Shown: positions 23,206-27,619, numbered from the stretch's first letter. The stretch: 64,000 nucleotides of DNA from Candidatus Micrarchaeota archaeon (GCA_021850805.1 JAJZKO010000004.1:8336-72335); one strand, 5' to 3'. Translations and numbers: made by a program. Notes: generated by a model from the sequence alone, not told the origin.

Positions 23206-23478
23206 ATGGCAAAACCGCAGAAAAACAAGGACAAAAAATCAAAACTGCTTGAAGCATTTACCAGGTCAGAGCAGATCGCAGAGCTTTATGCTAAGGGCGT
23301 AACAGAGAGCGAGGCGCTTCTCAACAGCCCGCAGGATAGACCTATGGACGATGCGCATATAAACGACCTTCTCGACCAGGAAAGGAGCAAAGCGTTTGAG
23401 GGCAGGCAGAAAATCACTTCATCGAGCCCAGCTCGCGCAAAGCCGACAAGAAAAACTGCAAAAGGAAAGAAGCGCTAA
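23206..23478 (+). CDS. Small hypothetical protein with basic termini
   Basis: 90-aa ORF in an otherwise empty gap, with TATA (TTTTAAA) upstream. Confidence 0.65.
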   Translation: MAKPQKNKDKKSKLLEAFTRSEQIAELYAKGVTESEALLNSPQDRPMDDAHINDLLDQERSKAFEGRQKITSSSPARAKPTRKTAKGKKR

Positions 23479-24653
23479 GCTCCTCCCTTGCCTATAGAAA
23501 GCCTGACCCCGTTCTGGTTTCTCGTTATGGTTATATCCAGATTGTCTCCGCCAAGTATATGCCTGAGTTCTTCATATGTGTAAGAGCCGATGTCTATCTT
23601 ATTCTTAAGGACCTCTGCCCTGCGCTCTATAAGAGACGCTTTCTTTATCTCACTGTATTTTAACCTAAGTGTAGGCTTCTCAGCTCCGTATATATCTTCG
23701 ATGCCGAGTTCTATCGGCTTATAACCCTCGCTCTGGTATATGAACGGTTCAACCGCATCAAACTCTGCGGAAACCTCCTTTGCTATATTGCTAGGCGCAT
23801 TGCCTGCCCCGGCGATCACGAAGTCATCGGCGTTCAGGAACCCCACAAAAACCCTGCTATCCTTTTCCACCGTAACCTTGTCTTGCAGTAATTGCGATAC
23901 CAGCCTGAGTATCGTTATGCCTGATTCATTTCCGAATCTGCTTGCGAATGCAGCCAACCCGTCCACCCTAAGCCTGCCTATCTCGTAATCACTCTTCTGT
24001 TCAAGGACCTTCTCAATCGCATCAGAGATCTTATCCTCATTGGGCAGATCTATCAAAGGGTCGAATTTTTTGCCCTTTTTCTTCAGGAAGATCCTAACAA
24101 GGCTTCTCAGCTCCGCAGGCTCAAAGGGCTTCTTAATGTAATAATCTGCCCCGTTCTTTATCCCCTTAAACCTGTTTGAAGTGGCATCCATTGCACTTAC
24201 TATTATAACAGTAATATCCTTCAGGTTTGGATTTGTCTTTATACTATTGCATATCTCAAGCCCGTCTGCGCCAGGAAGCATAAGATCCAAAACAACCAAG
24301 TCTGGCTTCTCACTCCTTATCCTCTGCAATGCCTCTTTTCCATCATAAATCTGGGATATATCGAATTCCTTTCCTATAGTGATTGCCATGAGCCTGCTTA
24401 TGTTTCTGTCATCCTCCACTATCATTATTCTCCTGAGAAGAGAGTCGCTCTGCAGCAGATAATATGTAGGTATCCCGCCGCTGTTCCTTGACGCTATAGC
24501 GCTGGATGCCTCCAGCTCGCGAAGCCCTTTCTCGAGGTCGGCATGCTCAATCTTCCTTGCGACAGCAAAATCCCTAAGCTCTGCAAGGGTAACCTGCTGC
24601 CTGTCGTTTATCATCGAGATTATTTCAGACTTTATTTCCTCTAAATCATTCAT
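23475..24653 (-). CDS. Response regulator: wHTH-like + REC + degenerate GGDEF-like domain
   Basis: IMIVEDD, LDLMLPGADG and KKPF receiver motifs; DPLIDLPN...FG..SG...FVGFLNADDFVI. Confidence 0.85.
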   Translation of the reverse strand: MNDLEEIKSEIISMINDRQQVTLAELRDFAVARKIEHADLEKGLRELEASSAIASRNSGGIPTYYLLQSDSLLRRIMIVEDDRNISRLMAITIGKEFDISQIYDGKEALQRIRSEKPDLVVLDLMLPGADGLEICNSIKTNPNLKDITVIIVSAMDATSNRFKGIKNGADYYIKKPFEPAELRSLVRIFLKKKGKKFDPLIDLPNEDKISDAIEKVLEQKSDYEIGRLRVDGLAAFASRFGNESGITILRLVSQLLQDKVTVEKDSRVFVGFLNADDFVIAGAGNAPSNIAKEVSAEFDAVEPFIYQSEGYKPIELGIEDIYGAEKPTLRLKYSEIKKASLIERRAEVLKNKIDIGSYTYEELRHILGGDNLDITITRNQNGVRLSIGKGGA

Positions 24654-24695
24654 ACCGATCGCCTAATTCTATAAAGTCTAAAAGGATTATTATAC

Positions 24696-26891
24696 TTAAC
24701 CATTCTTGCCCTTCTTCTTTTCTTTTTCGCTTATCGGTATGGTGAACCAGAAGTCGCTTCCCACTCCTACTTCTGACCTGACGTGCATCTTCCCTCCATG
24801 CAGGTTTACTATCTCCTTCACTATTGTCAGTCCAAGCCCCGTGCCGGATCCTTCCTGCTTCGTAAGGCCGCGCCTCTGAAGCTGATAAAACTTCTTGAAT
24901 ATCTTTCCTATGTCATCCTTGTTTATACCTATGCCTGTATCCTTAACATCCACCCTGACGCTCCTGCCAACCTTTGTTATATACACCTCTACAGAGCCTT
25001 TCTCAGTAAACTTTATTGCATTGGTTATCAGATTTACGAAAACCTGTATCAATCTATTTGGATCAGCACTCACACGCGGCACATTATAATCTACATGCCA
25101 TCCGAAGCCCACTCCCTTCCTTGAACAGAGCTCGCTCAGGGAGCGTATGCTCGGATGCTGTCCAAGCTCCTCAAGGTTTACCTGCTGGTAATCCAACCTT
25201 ATCTTGTTAGCTGAGAACTTGGCCACGTCAAGCACCTGCATTATAAGGTCCATCAGCCTGTTCAGGTCGCCCATCATGGTGTTCAATATGTCATTCTGCT
25301 CGTCTGTCAGCTTGCCAAACTCGCCATCTACCATAAGCTTCATGAAGCCGTATACTGCAGTTATCGGGGTCTTCAGGTCATGGGATATATTATATATAAA
25401 CTGGGTCTGTAGCTCAAGCTCTGACTTATAATTCTTCAGTTCCTTGTTGCTCTTGTCAAATGCATCTTCGAGCTGCTGCATCTGTCTCTTCGTCCTAAGC
25501 TCCTTGTTTATTATGTAGTATCCGCAAACCTCCCCATCCGCATCCCTCTCAGGCGTTATTGACTGGTAACATGGTATAAGCTCGTCTGTCCCCTTTGCCA
25601 CCATATTGACCAGTACGTCAGTAATCGGGCTCCTGTTGGCTTTGGCTATAGACAAAGAATTGCTTATCTTGTTCTGACTCTCTATATCTGCACATATTAC
25701 CGAGAAAGGCTTCCCAATTATCTCCTGATTCCTATATCCAAAGAGTGCTTCGGATCCCTTATTGAAAAAATTTATGTAGCCGTTGGTGTCTATCCTGAAG
25801 ATGGCATCGCTTGAGAGGTGCGTCAGGGTGTCAAGCCCAGCTTTGATAGAGTTCAGATAACCTGAGGAGTCCCGCCTGAGCACTATATGATACCTGTCCT
25901 CAAACCTGTAGAAAATACACTGAAATCTCTTTGTTACCTGGTTCCCAAAATCCAATTCCAGCGCGACTTCCCCCTTCCCGGCTGTAAGTTTCTCTAAGAA
26001 ATCTTCCCTTCCGCTTACTATATTCTCGGTGAACGCTTTTCCCAAAAACAAACCCGCCTCATCGCCATAACCGCCACACCAGGTCACCTTAAGTGACTTA
26101 TCAAGTATCAAATAATGCTGCTCTGGGAGGCTCTCGAGGAAATCAAGCCTTTCTTTGAGCTCTGCTGTCTCGGTAAAGTCATCAACTACGCAAAGGTTTG
26201 CGTTATTATTTATCTGGGTAAGAAGGAGCCTTAACCTGTGGCTCCTGTACTGAACATCTATCATACTCCCAAAGGGCATCTCCCCATGTATCCCGAACTC
26301 AGCGCGAAGATTGATCTTTGATGCTTCAGCAGGTGACATCCCAAAGATATTCAGAAACGACTTATTTGCCTTGAGTACCTTTCCGTCAGAATTGAAAACT
26401 GCCTGAGGCACGAAGCTATCGAACGCAGCGTCGAAATATCGCGCCGCGGCAAAACTCTTATCCTTCTCCGCCCTAAATGCAACCATATACTCCATAAGCT
26501 CCTTAAGATAGCCTATCCATACCATCTGCCTGTCTTCGAATACGTATTCCTTTTTAGAAAGTAGGGTGACAGTGCCAATTGGTTTTGAATCGAGTATAAC
26601 AGGCAATATCAGGCAGCTCTTAAATCCGCTTCTGAAGTAGTTTATCAGCTCTGGAAAAGAAGAGTAGTCGCTAAGCCTGTTATCCACATAATACCTCATA
26701 GTATTGTAAACCATATCCTCAGATGCTGTTCTGGTCCTTTCATTGTAAGGCTTAGGAATGACTTCCTCGAAATGGAGTTCGGTTTTTATCAGCTCGGCAA
26801 ACCCATCGAGCAATTTTACCGGAGAGCCCTGTTTCTCGCTTAATTCCTTAACTTTTAGGATAAGATTGCCGTAATCCGGAACGTAGTCCAT
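24696..26891 (-). CDS. Cytoplasmic sensor histidine kinase (GAF-like, PAS, HisKA, HATPase_c)
   Basis: ISHDLKTP H-box, NLITNAIKF, DTGIG, GTGLGL; PAS at NKGSEALFGY..EIIGK; no TM segment. Start set at ATG 26891. Confidence 0.92.
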   Translation of the reverse strand: MDYVPDYGNLILKVKELSEKQGSPVKLLDGFAELIKTELHFEEVIPKPYNERTRTASEDMVYNTMRYYVDNRLSDYSSFPELINYFRSGFKSCLILPVILDSKPIGTVTLLSKKEYVFEDRQMVWIGYLKELMEYMVAFRAEKDKSFAAARYFDAAFDSFVPQAVFNSDGKVLKANKSFLNIFGMSPAEASKINLRAEFGIHGEMPFGSMIDVQYRSHRLRLLLTQINNNANLCVVDDFTETAELKERLDFLESLPEQHYLILDKSLKVTWCGGYGDEAGLFLGKAFTENIVSGREDFLEKLTAGKGEVALELDFGNQVTKRFQCIFYRFEDRYHIVLRRDSSGYLNSIKAGLDTLTHLSSDAIFRIDTNGYINFFNKGSEALFGYRNQEIIGKPFSVICADIESQNKISNSLSIAKANRSPITDVLVNMVAKGTDELIPCYQSITPERDADGEVCGYYIINKELRTKRQMQQLEDAFDKSNKELKNYKSELELQTQFIYNISHDLKTPITAVYGFMKLMVDGEFGKLTDEQNDILNTMMGDLNRLMDLIMQVLDVAKFSANKIRLDYQQVNLEELGQHPSIRSLSELCSRKGVGFGWHVDYNVPRVSADPNRLIQVFVNLITNAIKFTEKGSVEVYITKVGRSVRVDVKDTGIGINKDDIGKIFKKFYQLQRRGLTKQEGSGTGLGLTIVKEIVNLHGGKMHVRSEVGVGSDFWFTIPISEKEKKKGKNG

Positions 26892-26941: not shown

Positions 26942-27619
26942 ATGGAAAACGAGAAAAGGACAGCGCCCGCAATAAAATACATAGGCGGCTATCTCGCCAC
27001 AAAAAAGCTAAAGGGGTCGTCAGGGGATCGGAAGGAGGAAGTCATCGAGAATGGCGTCGTGTACCGCCTATGGAACCCATATAACAGCAAGCTTTCTGCG
27101 GCAATAATATCCGGACTTAAAAATATGCACATAAGGGAAGGAAGCAAAGTCCTCTATCTCGGTGCAGCTAATGGAACAACCTGCAGCCATATAAGCGATA
27201 TAATAGGGCCTGAGGGTGTAATATACTGCGTTGAGATATCCGAAAGGAGCATGAGGGACTTGTTGCAGGTGTGTGAGACCAGGCCTAATATGATACCAAT
27301 ACTATCAGATGCCAGAAACACAGATTCATACGCCGCAGAGCTAAGCGGGATAGACATAATATATCAAGATGTCTCGGCAAGGGACCAGGCAGAGATACTC
27401 CTTGCCAATAAAGAGTTCCTTAAACCAGGCGGATATGCTTATGTGGCAATAAAATCACAGAGCATAGACGTCTCAAAAGACCCAAGAGACATATACAAGG
27501 AATTCATTAGCAAGGTCTCAAAGGAGATGGAGCTGATCGAGACAATAGACATTAACAGATACGACAAGATGCACCTATTTGTTATTTTTAGAAAACCTAT
27601 AAAAAGCCCAAATAAGTAA
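26942..27619 (+). CDS. flpA: Fibrillarin-like rRNA/tRNA 2'-O-methyltransferase
   Basis: YRLWNPYNSKLSA, LYLGAANGTT.SH, DVSARDQ. Confidence 0.95.
   Translation: MENEKRTAPAIKYIGGYLATKKLKGSSGDRKEEVIENGVVYRLWNPYNSKLSAAIISGLKNMHIREGSKVLYLGAANGTTCSHISDIIGPEGVIYCVEISERSMRDLLQVCETRPNMIPILSDARNTDSYAAELSGIDIIYQDVSARDQAEILLANKEFLKPGGYAYVAIKSQSIDVSKDPRDIYKEFISKVSKEMELIETIDINRYDKMHLFVIFRKPIKSPNK

Follow-up and report, generated by a model that had tools for sequence, protein, structure and literature searches.

Response regulators such as PleD and WspR change their oligomeric or conformational state upon phosphorylation, and in bacteria the degenerate GGDEF domains of PopA, where the domain is linked to a receiver (REC) domain, and of PelD are known to act as receptors of cyclic di-GMP (c-di-GMP), which they bind through an RxxD motif, the I-site. 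For DPANN archaea, which have very few regulators, the means of sensing host or environment are an open question. For the Micrarchaeota, a census counted one histidine kinase (HK) and one response regulator (RR) per genome, recorded a 'WspR-like (REC + inactivated GGDEF)' regulator in Ca. Micrarchaeum acidiphilum and classed the regulator of Mia14 as helix-turn-helix (HTH)-containing, while its passages on these genes left contamination by such bacterial-type genes open and gave no distribution (Galperin et al., 2018, PMC5847659). Archaeal GGDEF proteins, including some from DPANN metagenome-assembled genomes (MAGs), have since been reported to show diguanylate cyclase activity in bacterial hosts, the DPANN proteins in question being short and consisting of GGDEF only (Sidorov et al., 2026, PMC13725321). 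Here we describe a histidine kinase gene and a response regulator gene that lie adjacent on the minus strand, together spanning 23475..26891, of a 64,000-nucleotide stretch of DNA from a Candidatus Micrarchaeota archaeon (GCA_021850805.1 JAJZKO010000004.1:8336-72335), which is referred to below as the window.

The pair constitutes the single two-component system of this Micrarchaeon, a very small symbiont, and has been kept in single copy across its lineage. Its regulator combines an N-terminal domain predicted to be winged-helix-like, an intact REC domain and a C-terminal domain for which structure prediction supports a GGDEF fold that has lost the cyclase signature. We consider it slightly better than an even bet that the protein is a phosphorylation-driven, non-enzymatic binding switch, in which the dead GGDEF domain would provide a scaffold and the winged helix the effector. 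A first-pass annotation of this DNA had placed a kinase and a regulator gene here, and both open reading frames (ORFs) are present. It had also called the circuit undescribed, a claim that has to be withdrawn, since the architecture is not new: the 2018 census already lists the one kinase, the one regulator and the union of REC with an inactivated GGDEF domain (PMC5847659). A literature search, with subscription journals outside its reach, found no functional study of the regulator. New here are the three-domain description, the fold-level evidence, the lineage-wide single-copy distribution, the link to a GGDDF subtype and the independence from canonical GGDEF proteins. The features of the pair are as follows.

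24696..26891 (-), histidine kinase gene, an ORF of 731 residues counted from its ATG (26891)
26511..26648 (-), GAF-like segment in the kinase, residues 82-127, scoring under the Pfam cut-off
25494..25829 (-), kinase PAS domain, residues 355-466, from Pfam
24732..25409 (-), catalytic core of the kinase, HisKA (495-560) and HATPase_c (610-720), from Pfam and motifs
24654..24695 (-), kinase-regulator spacer of 42 bp, holding an AT-rich box and a Shine-Dalgarno-like string
23475..24653 (-), response regulator gene, an ORF of 392 residues
24444..24653 (-), acidic N-terminal domain, predicted winged-helix-like, residues 1-70, from AlphaFold2 (AF2) topology and weak Pfam matches
24096..24428 (-), REC domain, residues 76-186, with phospho-acceptor Asp123, from Pfam
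24042..24086 (-), Lys-rich linker LKKKGKKFDPLIDL, residues 190-203, from identity in 29 sequences
23544..24068 (-), degenerate domain with a predicted GGDEF fold, residues 196-370, from AF2 and fold searches
23820..23834 (-), NADDF pentapeptide, residues 274-278, from the ORF translation
23490..23537 (-), family-specific C-terminal beta-hairpin, residues 373-388, LDITITR..GVRLSIGK, beyond the GGDEF-aligned range

With the C-terminal 197 residues as query (E<=1e-5), the C-terminal domain turned up in 187 of 400 genomes that sample the phylum. Within the order it is present in 163/176 sampled genomes, with 74/81 in the window's own family, 88/94 in a sister family and 1/1 in the third family of the order. 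Outside the order the distribution is patchy, some families being positive in 3/3, 6/7, 5/5 and 3/9 genomes and others in 0/30, 0/76, 0/21 and 0/17. Nearly all positive genomes have one match, and among the matches listed the frames are open, with no internal stops. The genome of the window (883 kb, 84% complete) yields one REC and one HisKA match, and all five near-closed relatives (1-3 contigs) have exactly one REC each, adjoining the C-terminal domain. A word-indexed search retrieved over 120 full-length homologs (63-97% identity), those with names being assigned to Micrarchaeota, Micrarchaeaceae, Micrarchaeia and, in three cases, Marsarchaeota; an exhaustive search added a few clusters at 37-46% identity. 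The regulator is 50-72% identical across families, and at loci where the linked kinase is only 34-42% identical it still reaches 50-68%.

Two of the homologs (P0010 and P0074, 67-71% identity) are labelled Candidatus Marsarchaeota, which may reflect an issue of binning or naming. A 41%-identical full-length member with the pentapeptide GNGEF (L015) is found in a MAG named Candidatus ainarchaeum sp., outside the Micrarchaeota, and has a kinase-like gene upstream on the opposite strand.

The fold of the C-terminal domain had to be approached through relatives and through structure, because the Pfam GGDEF model (PF00990) misses the window's regulator, giving no match even at E 0.1. A profile of the whole protein run against the sequences of the Protein Data Bank (PDB) returned only REC among the best 60 of 309 matches, so that sequence alone is insufficient to reach solved GGDEF domains. 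Among 29 relatives, however, PF00990 matches 20 at E<=1 (best 6.7e-6), and in one relative the domain passes the Pfam cut-off, with 26.3 bits against 23.8. For residues 190-392, AF2 modelling from a 39-sequence alignment (predicted local distance difference test, pLDDT, 81.5; predicted TM-score, pTM, 0.78) gave the palm-like beta-alpha-alpha-beta-beta-alpha-beta-alpha fold of GGDEF domains, and in the full-length model NADDF is placed on the beta2-beta3 hairpin, between strands 269-274 and 277-283. The best PDB matches of the model of residues 190-392 in Foldseek are GGDEF domains (E 7e-4; TM 0.44 on the query, 0.52 on the target), and VIA re-alignment gave GGDEF domains in 50/50 rows shown, at Z 10.0-8.1 and a root-mean-square deviation (rmsd) of about 3.3 A over about 130 residues, the top row standing at Z 10.0 with rmsd 3.3 over 132 residues. 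In a search of 48,161 chains that is independent of Foldseek, ranks 1-32 are all GGDEF domains (Z 9.8-7.4). Other palm folds, namely the class III cyclase, the Cas10 palm, Thg1 and the polymerase palm, were weighed as alternatives and rejected, as they score Z 7.1-5.9 against 9.8-7.4 for GGDEF; the list of non-GGDEF folds opens with T7 DNA polymerase (Z 7.1), followed by class III cyclases at 6.2-5.9 and a type III CRISPR effector chain at 6.0. Moreover, the full-length regulator model (pLDDT 66.7) has the REC-GGDEF regulators WspR, PleD and DgcR as its top Foldseek matches (E 3e-13 to 6e-11). Overall, these models support the GGDEF fold, and with it the degenerate GGDEF output that the first-pass annotation had proposed. 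The part of the model to which solved GGDEF domains align runs from model residue 7 to 181, or 196 to 370 in protein numbering. Specific to the family are an inserted low-confidence loop of about 20 residues (~307-325) and the beta-hairpin at ~373-388; the latter is the extra C-terminal segment that had been noticed from the sequence, and it is real but small.

Where cyclases carry GG[DE]EF, the window's regulator has NADDF and is without both glycines, and the strings from which the GGDEF pattern had been read are all present (FDPLIDLPNE at 197-206, RVDGLAAFASRFGNESG and FVGFLNADDF, with NADDF at 274-278). Across 39 family members the pentapeptide takes 18 forms, including NGDDF in 18 sequences, DADDF in 3, GNGEF in 2, NNTEF in 2 and NADDF in 1, besides singletons such as NSEMF, GESSF and GDSFF. 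The acidic position on beta1, which we take to be metal-binding as in PleD, is D in the window (RVDGL) and D, E, N, A, R, G or S across the family, and the Asn/Asp of the DLPN motif, presumably guanine-binding, appears as DLPN in 26/39 members and as DLPD in 13/39; the conserved beta1 acid and guanine-binding Asn/Asp of diguanylate cyclases are thus not found throughout the family. Nor does the regulator carry the cyclase motif [G/A/S]G[D/E]E[F/Y], as that motif is given in PMC8835794. An RxxD I-site, looked for five residues before the GG position, is absent, the window having DSRV at 265-268, and neither family alignment (A1 or A2) shows a conserved R..D, which sets the regulator apart from I-site GGDEF proteins of the PleD, PopA and PelD type. 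Because the pentapeptide takes so many forms, the beta1 acid varies and RxxD is absent, catalysis by the regulator is unlikely. Other parts of the protein are well conserved. The Lys-rich linker LKKKGKKFDPLIDLP (residues 191-204) is the best-conserved stretch, its mean pairwise identity over 29 sequences being 94.9%, compared with 63-77% for the domains; the loop YQSEGYKPIELGIEDIYG stands at 77% identity, the helix ILRLVSQLLQD is conserved, and D373, I376, T377 and R378 of the hairpin are invariant in the 29-sequence alignment A1.

The phosphorelay motifs are intact in both kinase and regulator. REC (residues 76-186, E 1e-24) is the single domain recognised in a Pfam scan of the window's regulator, and an NCBIfam scan gave REC-based partial matches only, all far below their cut-offs. 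The acidic pair E80 and D81, the phospho-acceptor D123, S153 and K175 are each kept in 38/38 full-length relatives. The kinase frame is open up to a TTG at 27002, and the 731-residue form starting from the ATG at 26891 was adopted because a 92%-identical relative (L002) aligns from its residue 1. The protein has the features of a HisKA-type kinase, with a PAS domain at 355-466 (PAS_9 E 4e-12, PAS_4 E 5e-12, PAS E 2e-8), a HisKA domain (E 1e-14) with the H-box ISHDLKTP, and a HATPase_c domain (E 1e-30) with the N-box NLITNAIKF and the G1 and G2 boxes (DTGIG, GSGTG). It had been introduced as an intact GAF/PAS kinase without a transmembrane (TM) helix. The PAS domain and the missing TM helix are borne out, whereas the GAF domain is only partly so, its signal being weak (GAF_2 at 85-127 with E 0.008 and 16.8 bits, where the cut-off is 28.6; GAF with E 0.054). 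No TM helix is seen in the kinase, because the most hydrophobic 19-residue segment (hydropathy 1.59) holds D, S and K, and the protein is predicted to be soluble and cytoplasmic.

The N-terminal 70 residues of the regulator are modelled as winged-helix-like. In the full-length AF2 model, with pLDDT 75-87 over the first 50 residues, helix 3-18, strand 20-22, helices 23-32 and 37-49, and strands 53-58 and 61-66 follow the alpha1-beta1-alpha2-alpha3-beta2-beta3 topology of a helix-turn-helix domain of the winged type (wHTH), in agreement with the earlier suggestion of a wHTH-like N-terminus before an intact REC. Further, Penicillinase_R weakly matches the domain in 13/29 relatives (best E 1e-4, Pfam), and HTH_20 (E 8e-4), ArsR, MarR and TrmB (E 1e-4) match it in divergent members.

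Taken as a binding switch, the system could work as follows. The soluble kinase would read a cytoplasmic cue via its GAF-like/PAS region, autophosphorylate on the H-box His and pass the phosphate to Asp123 of the regulator, as the intact motifs of both proteins would allow. Phosphorylation would most likely shift the oligomeric or conformational state of the regulator, in the manner described above for PleD and WspR. The winged helix would then bind nucleic acid or a partner, and the dead GGDEF fold, together with the Lys-rich linker, the loop and the hairpin, would form a scaffold for dimerisation or partner binding. Since no catalysis appears to be left, the output would be binding; both dimerisation and the kind of output are proposed on these grounds, and DNA binding by the N-terminal domain is possible.

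Several observations weigh against this reading. Sequence matches of the N-terminal domain to wHTH proteins are weak, a PDB profile search giving, apart from designed homeodomains, only CodY, SmtB, BlaI and PadR at E 0.07-0.7, and leads from a protein atlas score about 0.8, which is the level of chance. The domain is acidic, with a net charge of -3 to -9 and a median pI of 4.4. Exposed positions of helix 3 vary across the 29-sequence alignment, and the wing (ASRxSGGIxTYY; A54, R56, S58-I61, T63-Y65) is invariant, a pattern unlike that of a conserved sequence-reading helix; the acidic charge and the variable third helix call for caution on DNA binding. No target gene was found, nor any operator in spacers inspected by eye, with no formal motif search. 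Finally, the dead domain, the low-confidence loop and the linker are conserved beyond the needs of a mere scaffold, which hints at a specific ligand or partner.

Some of these points fit equally a pure protein-protein adaptor, in which the phosphorylated regulator would dock on a conserved cellular machine and touch neither nucleic acid nor nucleotide. An acidic winged helix whose third helix varies and whose wing does not would suit such a role, as would a loop (306-328) that is conserved and yet of low confidence, as is expected for a docking motif, and contacts between proteins have been argued to be the main mode of action of archaeal regulators (Galperin et al., 2018, PMC5847659). Against it, no partner was identified, and the neighbouring genes, for an Lhr helicase and fibrillarin, serve housekeeping and show no evident link. 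We consider the adaptor unlikely, although it is the best placed of the alternatives to a switch that acts through the winged helix.

It would also be attractive to see in the degenerate GGDEF domain a receptor of c-di-GMP or a related nucleotide produced by stand-alone cyclases, with phosphorylation and a second messenger converging on the regulator. The genome also holds a stand-alone canonical GGDEF gene (G000:C22:5222-5989 (+), 255 residues, PF00990 98.5 bits, MGGDEF), whose product has a coiled-coil-like N-terminus and an RxxD one extra residue off the I-site spacing; in 5/5 of its relatives inspected, GGDEF is accompanied by RxxD at the I-site spacing. The gene lies in an archaeal context, as it is directly downstream of rpS12, rpS7 and EF-2, and its homologs occur in 54/180 genomes of the order. 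It fits the DPANN proteins whose cyclase activity in bacterial hosts has been reported (Sidorov et al., 2026, PMC13725321), and the earlier statement that c-di-GMP signalling is not established in archaea therefore needs qualifying. EAL, PilZ and HD-GYP domains gave no match in the 84%-complete genome, leaving the regulator as the only other GGDEF-fold protein seen there. However, the regulator is without the RxxD I-site, and its guanine- and metal-contacting positions, as we assume them to be, vary. Moreover, the 5/5 near-closed genomes with the regulator have no canonical GGDEF gene by PF00990, which in 2/5 matches the regulator's own domain only, and for this reason the regulator is regarded as independent of the canonical gene; conversely, five genomes of the order (G094, G138, G251, G285, G320) match the canonical GGDEF query and not the regulator query. 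A nucleotide receptor is hence decidedly improbable in our judgement.

Very improbable is a residual enzyme, the NGDDF form of which would still cyclise nucleotides (c-di-GMP, cyclic GMP-AMP or other) under the control of phosphorylation. Such a view could draw on the GGDDF enzyme GSU1937, which is reported to be active (PMC8835794), on the retention of both acidic residues in much of the window's own family (NGDDF in 18/39), on a beta1 D or E in most close relatives and on the one relative whose domain passes the Pfam GGDEF cut-off. Yet the first glycine is replaced by N, D or C in most members, the window's NADDF is also without the second, and the corresponding GADDF mutant of GSU1937 is dead (PMC8835794); in the sister family the pentapeptide has become NNTEF, NSDVF, NSEMF, NSDAF or NNESF while the rest of the domain is conserved.

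The ancestry of the regulator points outside the Archaea. The best matches beyond the family are bacterial multi-REC proteins, to which the REC and the following domain align in one piece. Within a 161-sequence set, whose bacterial members were chosen through REC similarity and are thus a biased sample, the C-terminal domain alone matches 22 REC-linked proteins from bacteria, [IV][GA]GDDF being present in 20, and 0/6 canonical Micrarchaeal GGDEF proteins. By hhalign, the probability is 99.85 over 237 columns for one bacterial [IV][GA]GDDF protein and 28% for the genome's own canonical GGDEF. Judged by sequence comparison, the nearest relatives are bacterial REC-linked '[IV][GA]GDDF' GGDEF domains and not the canonical GGDEF domain of the same genome. 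Read most simply, a bacterial REC-GGDDF regulator of this subtype would have been acquired long ago, after which the winged helix would have been gained and the cyclase active site lost. That the gene is a decaying recent arrival from bacteria, or that the archaeal bin is contaminated with bacterial DNA, deserves negligible weight: the closest non-family relatives are indeed bacterial and the 2018 census left the matter open (PMC5847659), but either view is excluded by the distribution (163/176 order genomes, mostly with a single match and open frames among the matches listed; the sole REC in 5/5 near-closed relatives) and opposed by the archaeal Lhr and fibrillarin flanks and the 50-72% identity across families.

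The positive genomes found across the phylum (187/400) likewise dispose of the objection, raised with the first-pass annotation itself, that the architecture might be a decaying transfer with no archaeal orthologs, and they settle the contamination question of 2018, in that the genes of these bacterial-type REC-GGDEF regulators are truly archaeal and have been inherited vertically. The order carries two unrelated kinds of GGDEF-fold protein, a dead REC-linked one and a canonical stand-alone one, and their presence in one order bears on the question of c-di-GMP signalling in archaea.

The genes flanking the pair in the window encode an Lhr-type helicase and fibrillarin (Pfam), and one or both of these also flank it in L002-L004, L006, L009 and L011. 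The kinase lies upstream of the regulator on the same strand in 9/14 species-level loci. Within the spacer of the window, an AT-rich box, TATAATAAT, at about 24686..24694 and the Shine-Dalgarno-like string AGGCGAT at about 24658..24664 stand ahead of the regulator start, and in seven relatives a comparable AT-rich box and a GG(C/T)GA string precede the start as judged by eye, which suggests that the regulator has its own promoter even directly behind the kinase gene; the box would then be a putative promoter element. No operator was seen by eye in the seven regulator-upstream spacers and that of the window, which showed only the promoter-like box and the Shine-Dalgarno-like string. The AT-rich box, as TATAATAAT or AATATTA, recurs across L003-L013 at ~33-41 nt before the regulator start codon.

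A Lys-rich ORF of 90 residues at 23206..23478 (+) converges on the regulator gene, the two ends overlapping by 4 bp. It has no Pfam match, is 84% identical in L002 and is partially present in L003 (46% over 56 residues).

A gene for a surface-type protein stands between kinase and regulator, head-to-head with the latter, in 7/14 family loci. The protein has 323-371 residues, a single membrane helix at the N-terminus, stretches rich in Ser/Thr, numerous NxS/T sequons and cysteines that are conserved, and its genes are located as follows.

L003:2803-3774 (-), surface-type protein gene
L004:2745-3860 (-), surface-type protein gene
L006:2900-3949 (-), surface-type protein gene
L007:2619-3620 (-), surface-type protein gene
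L008:2400-3434 (-), surface-type protein gene
L011:2836-3858 (-), surface-type protein gene
L013:2753-3835 (-), surface-type protein gene

It gave no match in the window (tblastn) or in the window's own genome, although such an empty result proves nothing. The head-to-head, membrane-anchored protein is a candidate target or surface protein, and its gene is one hint behind a bolder proposal, quite unlikely in our estimate, that the sole two-component system of the Micrarchaeales is a lineage-defining master switch for symbiosis in which the dead GGDEF domain has acquired a new ligand or partner site. If true, the switch would govern, for example, cell-surface remodelling or host attachment, and the new site would consist of the Lys-rich linker, the loop 306-328 and the C-terminal hairpin, working without a classical I-site and possibly reading a cyclic dinucleotide supplied by the host or by stand-alone cyclases of the cell itself. 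Since almost all sampled genomes of the order retain the pair, and the regulator is far better conserved than the kinase, the system offers a good handle on the decision that the cell takes.

How, then, does the regulator compare with the systems already described? PleD, WspR and DgcR likewise have REC directly N-terminal of a GGDEF fold and are, besides the top full-length structural matches, the best domain matches as well, at Z about 9. The Micrarchaeal protein differs from them in that it is without GG[DE]EF and RxxD and is not expected to have cyclase activity, belongs to an archaeal host and adds the N-terminal winged helix, the 20-residue loop and the C-terminal hairpin. With PopA and PelD it would share the retention of a catalytically dead GGDEF domain as a binding module, their RxxD being absent from it. 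The bacterial [IV][GA]GDDF proteins (such as P0167 from Gemmatimonadota and P0242, with the order REC-GGDEF-REC-HD-GYP) are the nearest sequence relatives of its REC and C-terminal domain and have the DDF ending of the motif in common with most of the window's own family. They keep GGDDF or AGDDF and pass the Pfam GGDEF cut-off with 44-64 bits, whereas the regulator family is degenerate; they are also without the winged helix and bear only generic response-regulator names in NCBIfam. The regulators of Ca. Micrarchaeum acidiphilum and Mia14 come from the same phylum, with one HK and one RR and the same domain calls, and probably belong to the same family, as judged from their descriptions; the locus tags of the HK and the REC-GGDEF gene in ARMAN-1 differ by two, which fits the HK-gene-RR layout of seven loci, and the entries of the census never join the HTH and the dead GGDEF in one description (PMC5847659). 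LtrR-type archaeal regulators, likened here by domain order, are without a GGDEF-fold domain and are reported in that census only from haloarchaea and Methanosarcina, but they place the HTH N-terminal to REC just as the Micrarchaeal regulator appears to do, in the reverse of the bacterial order (PMC5847659).

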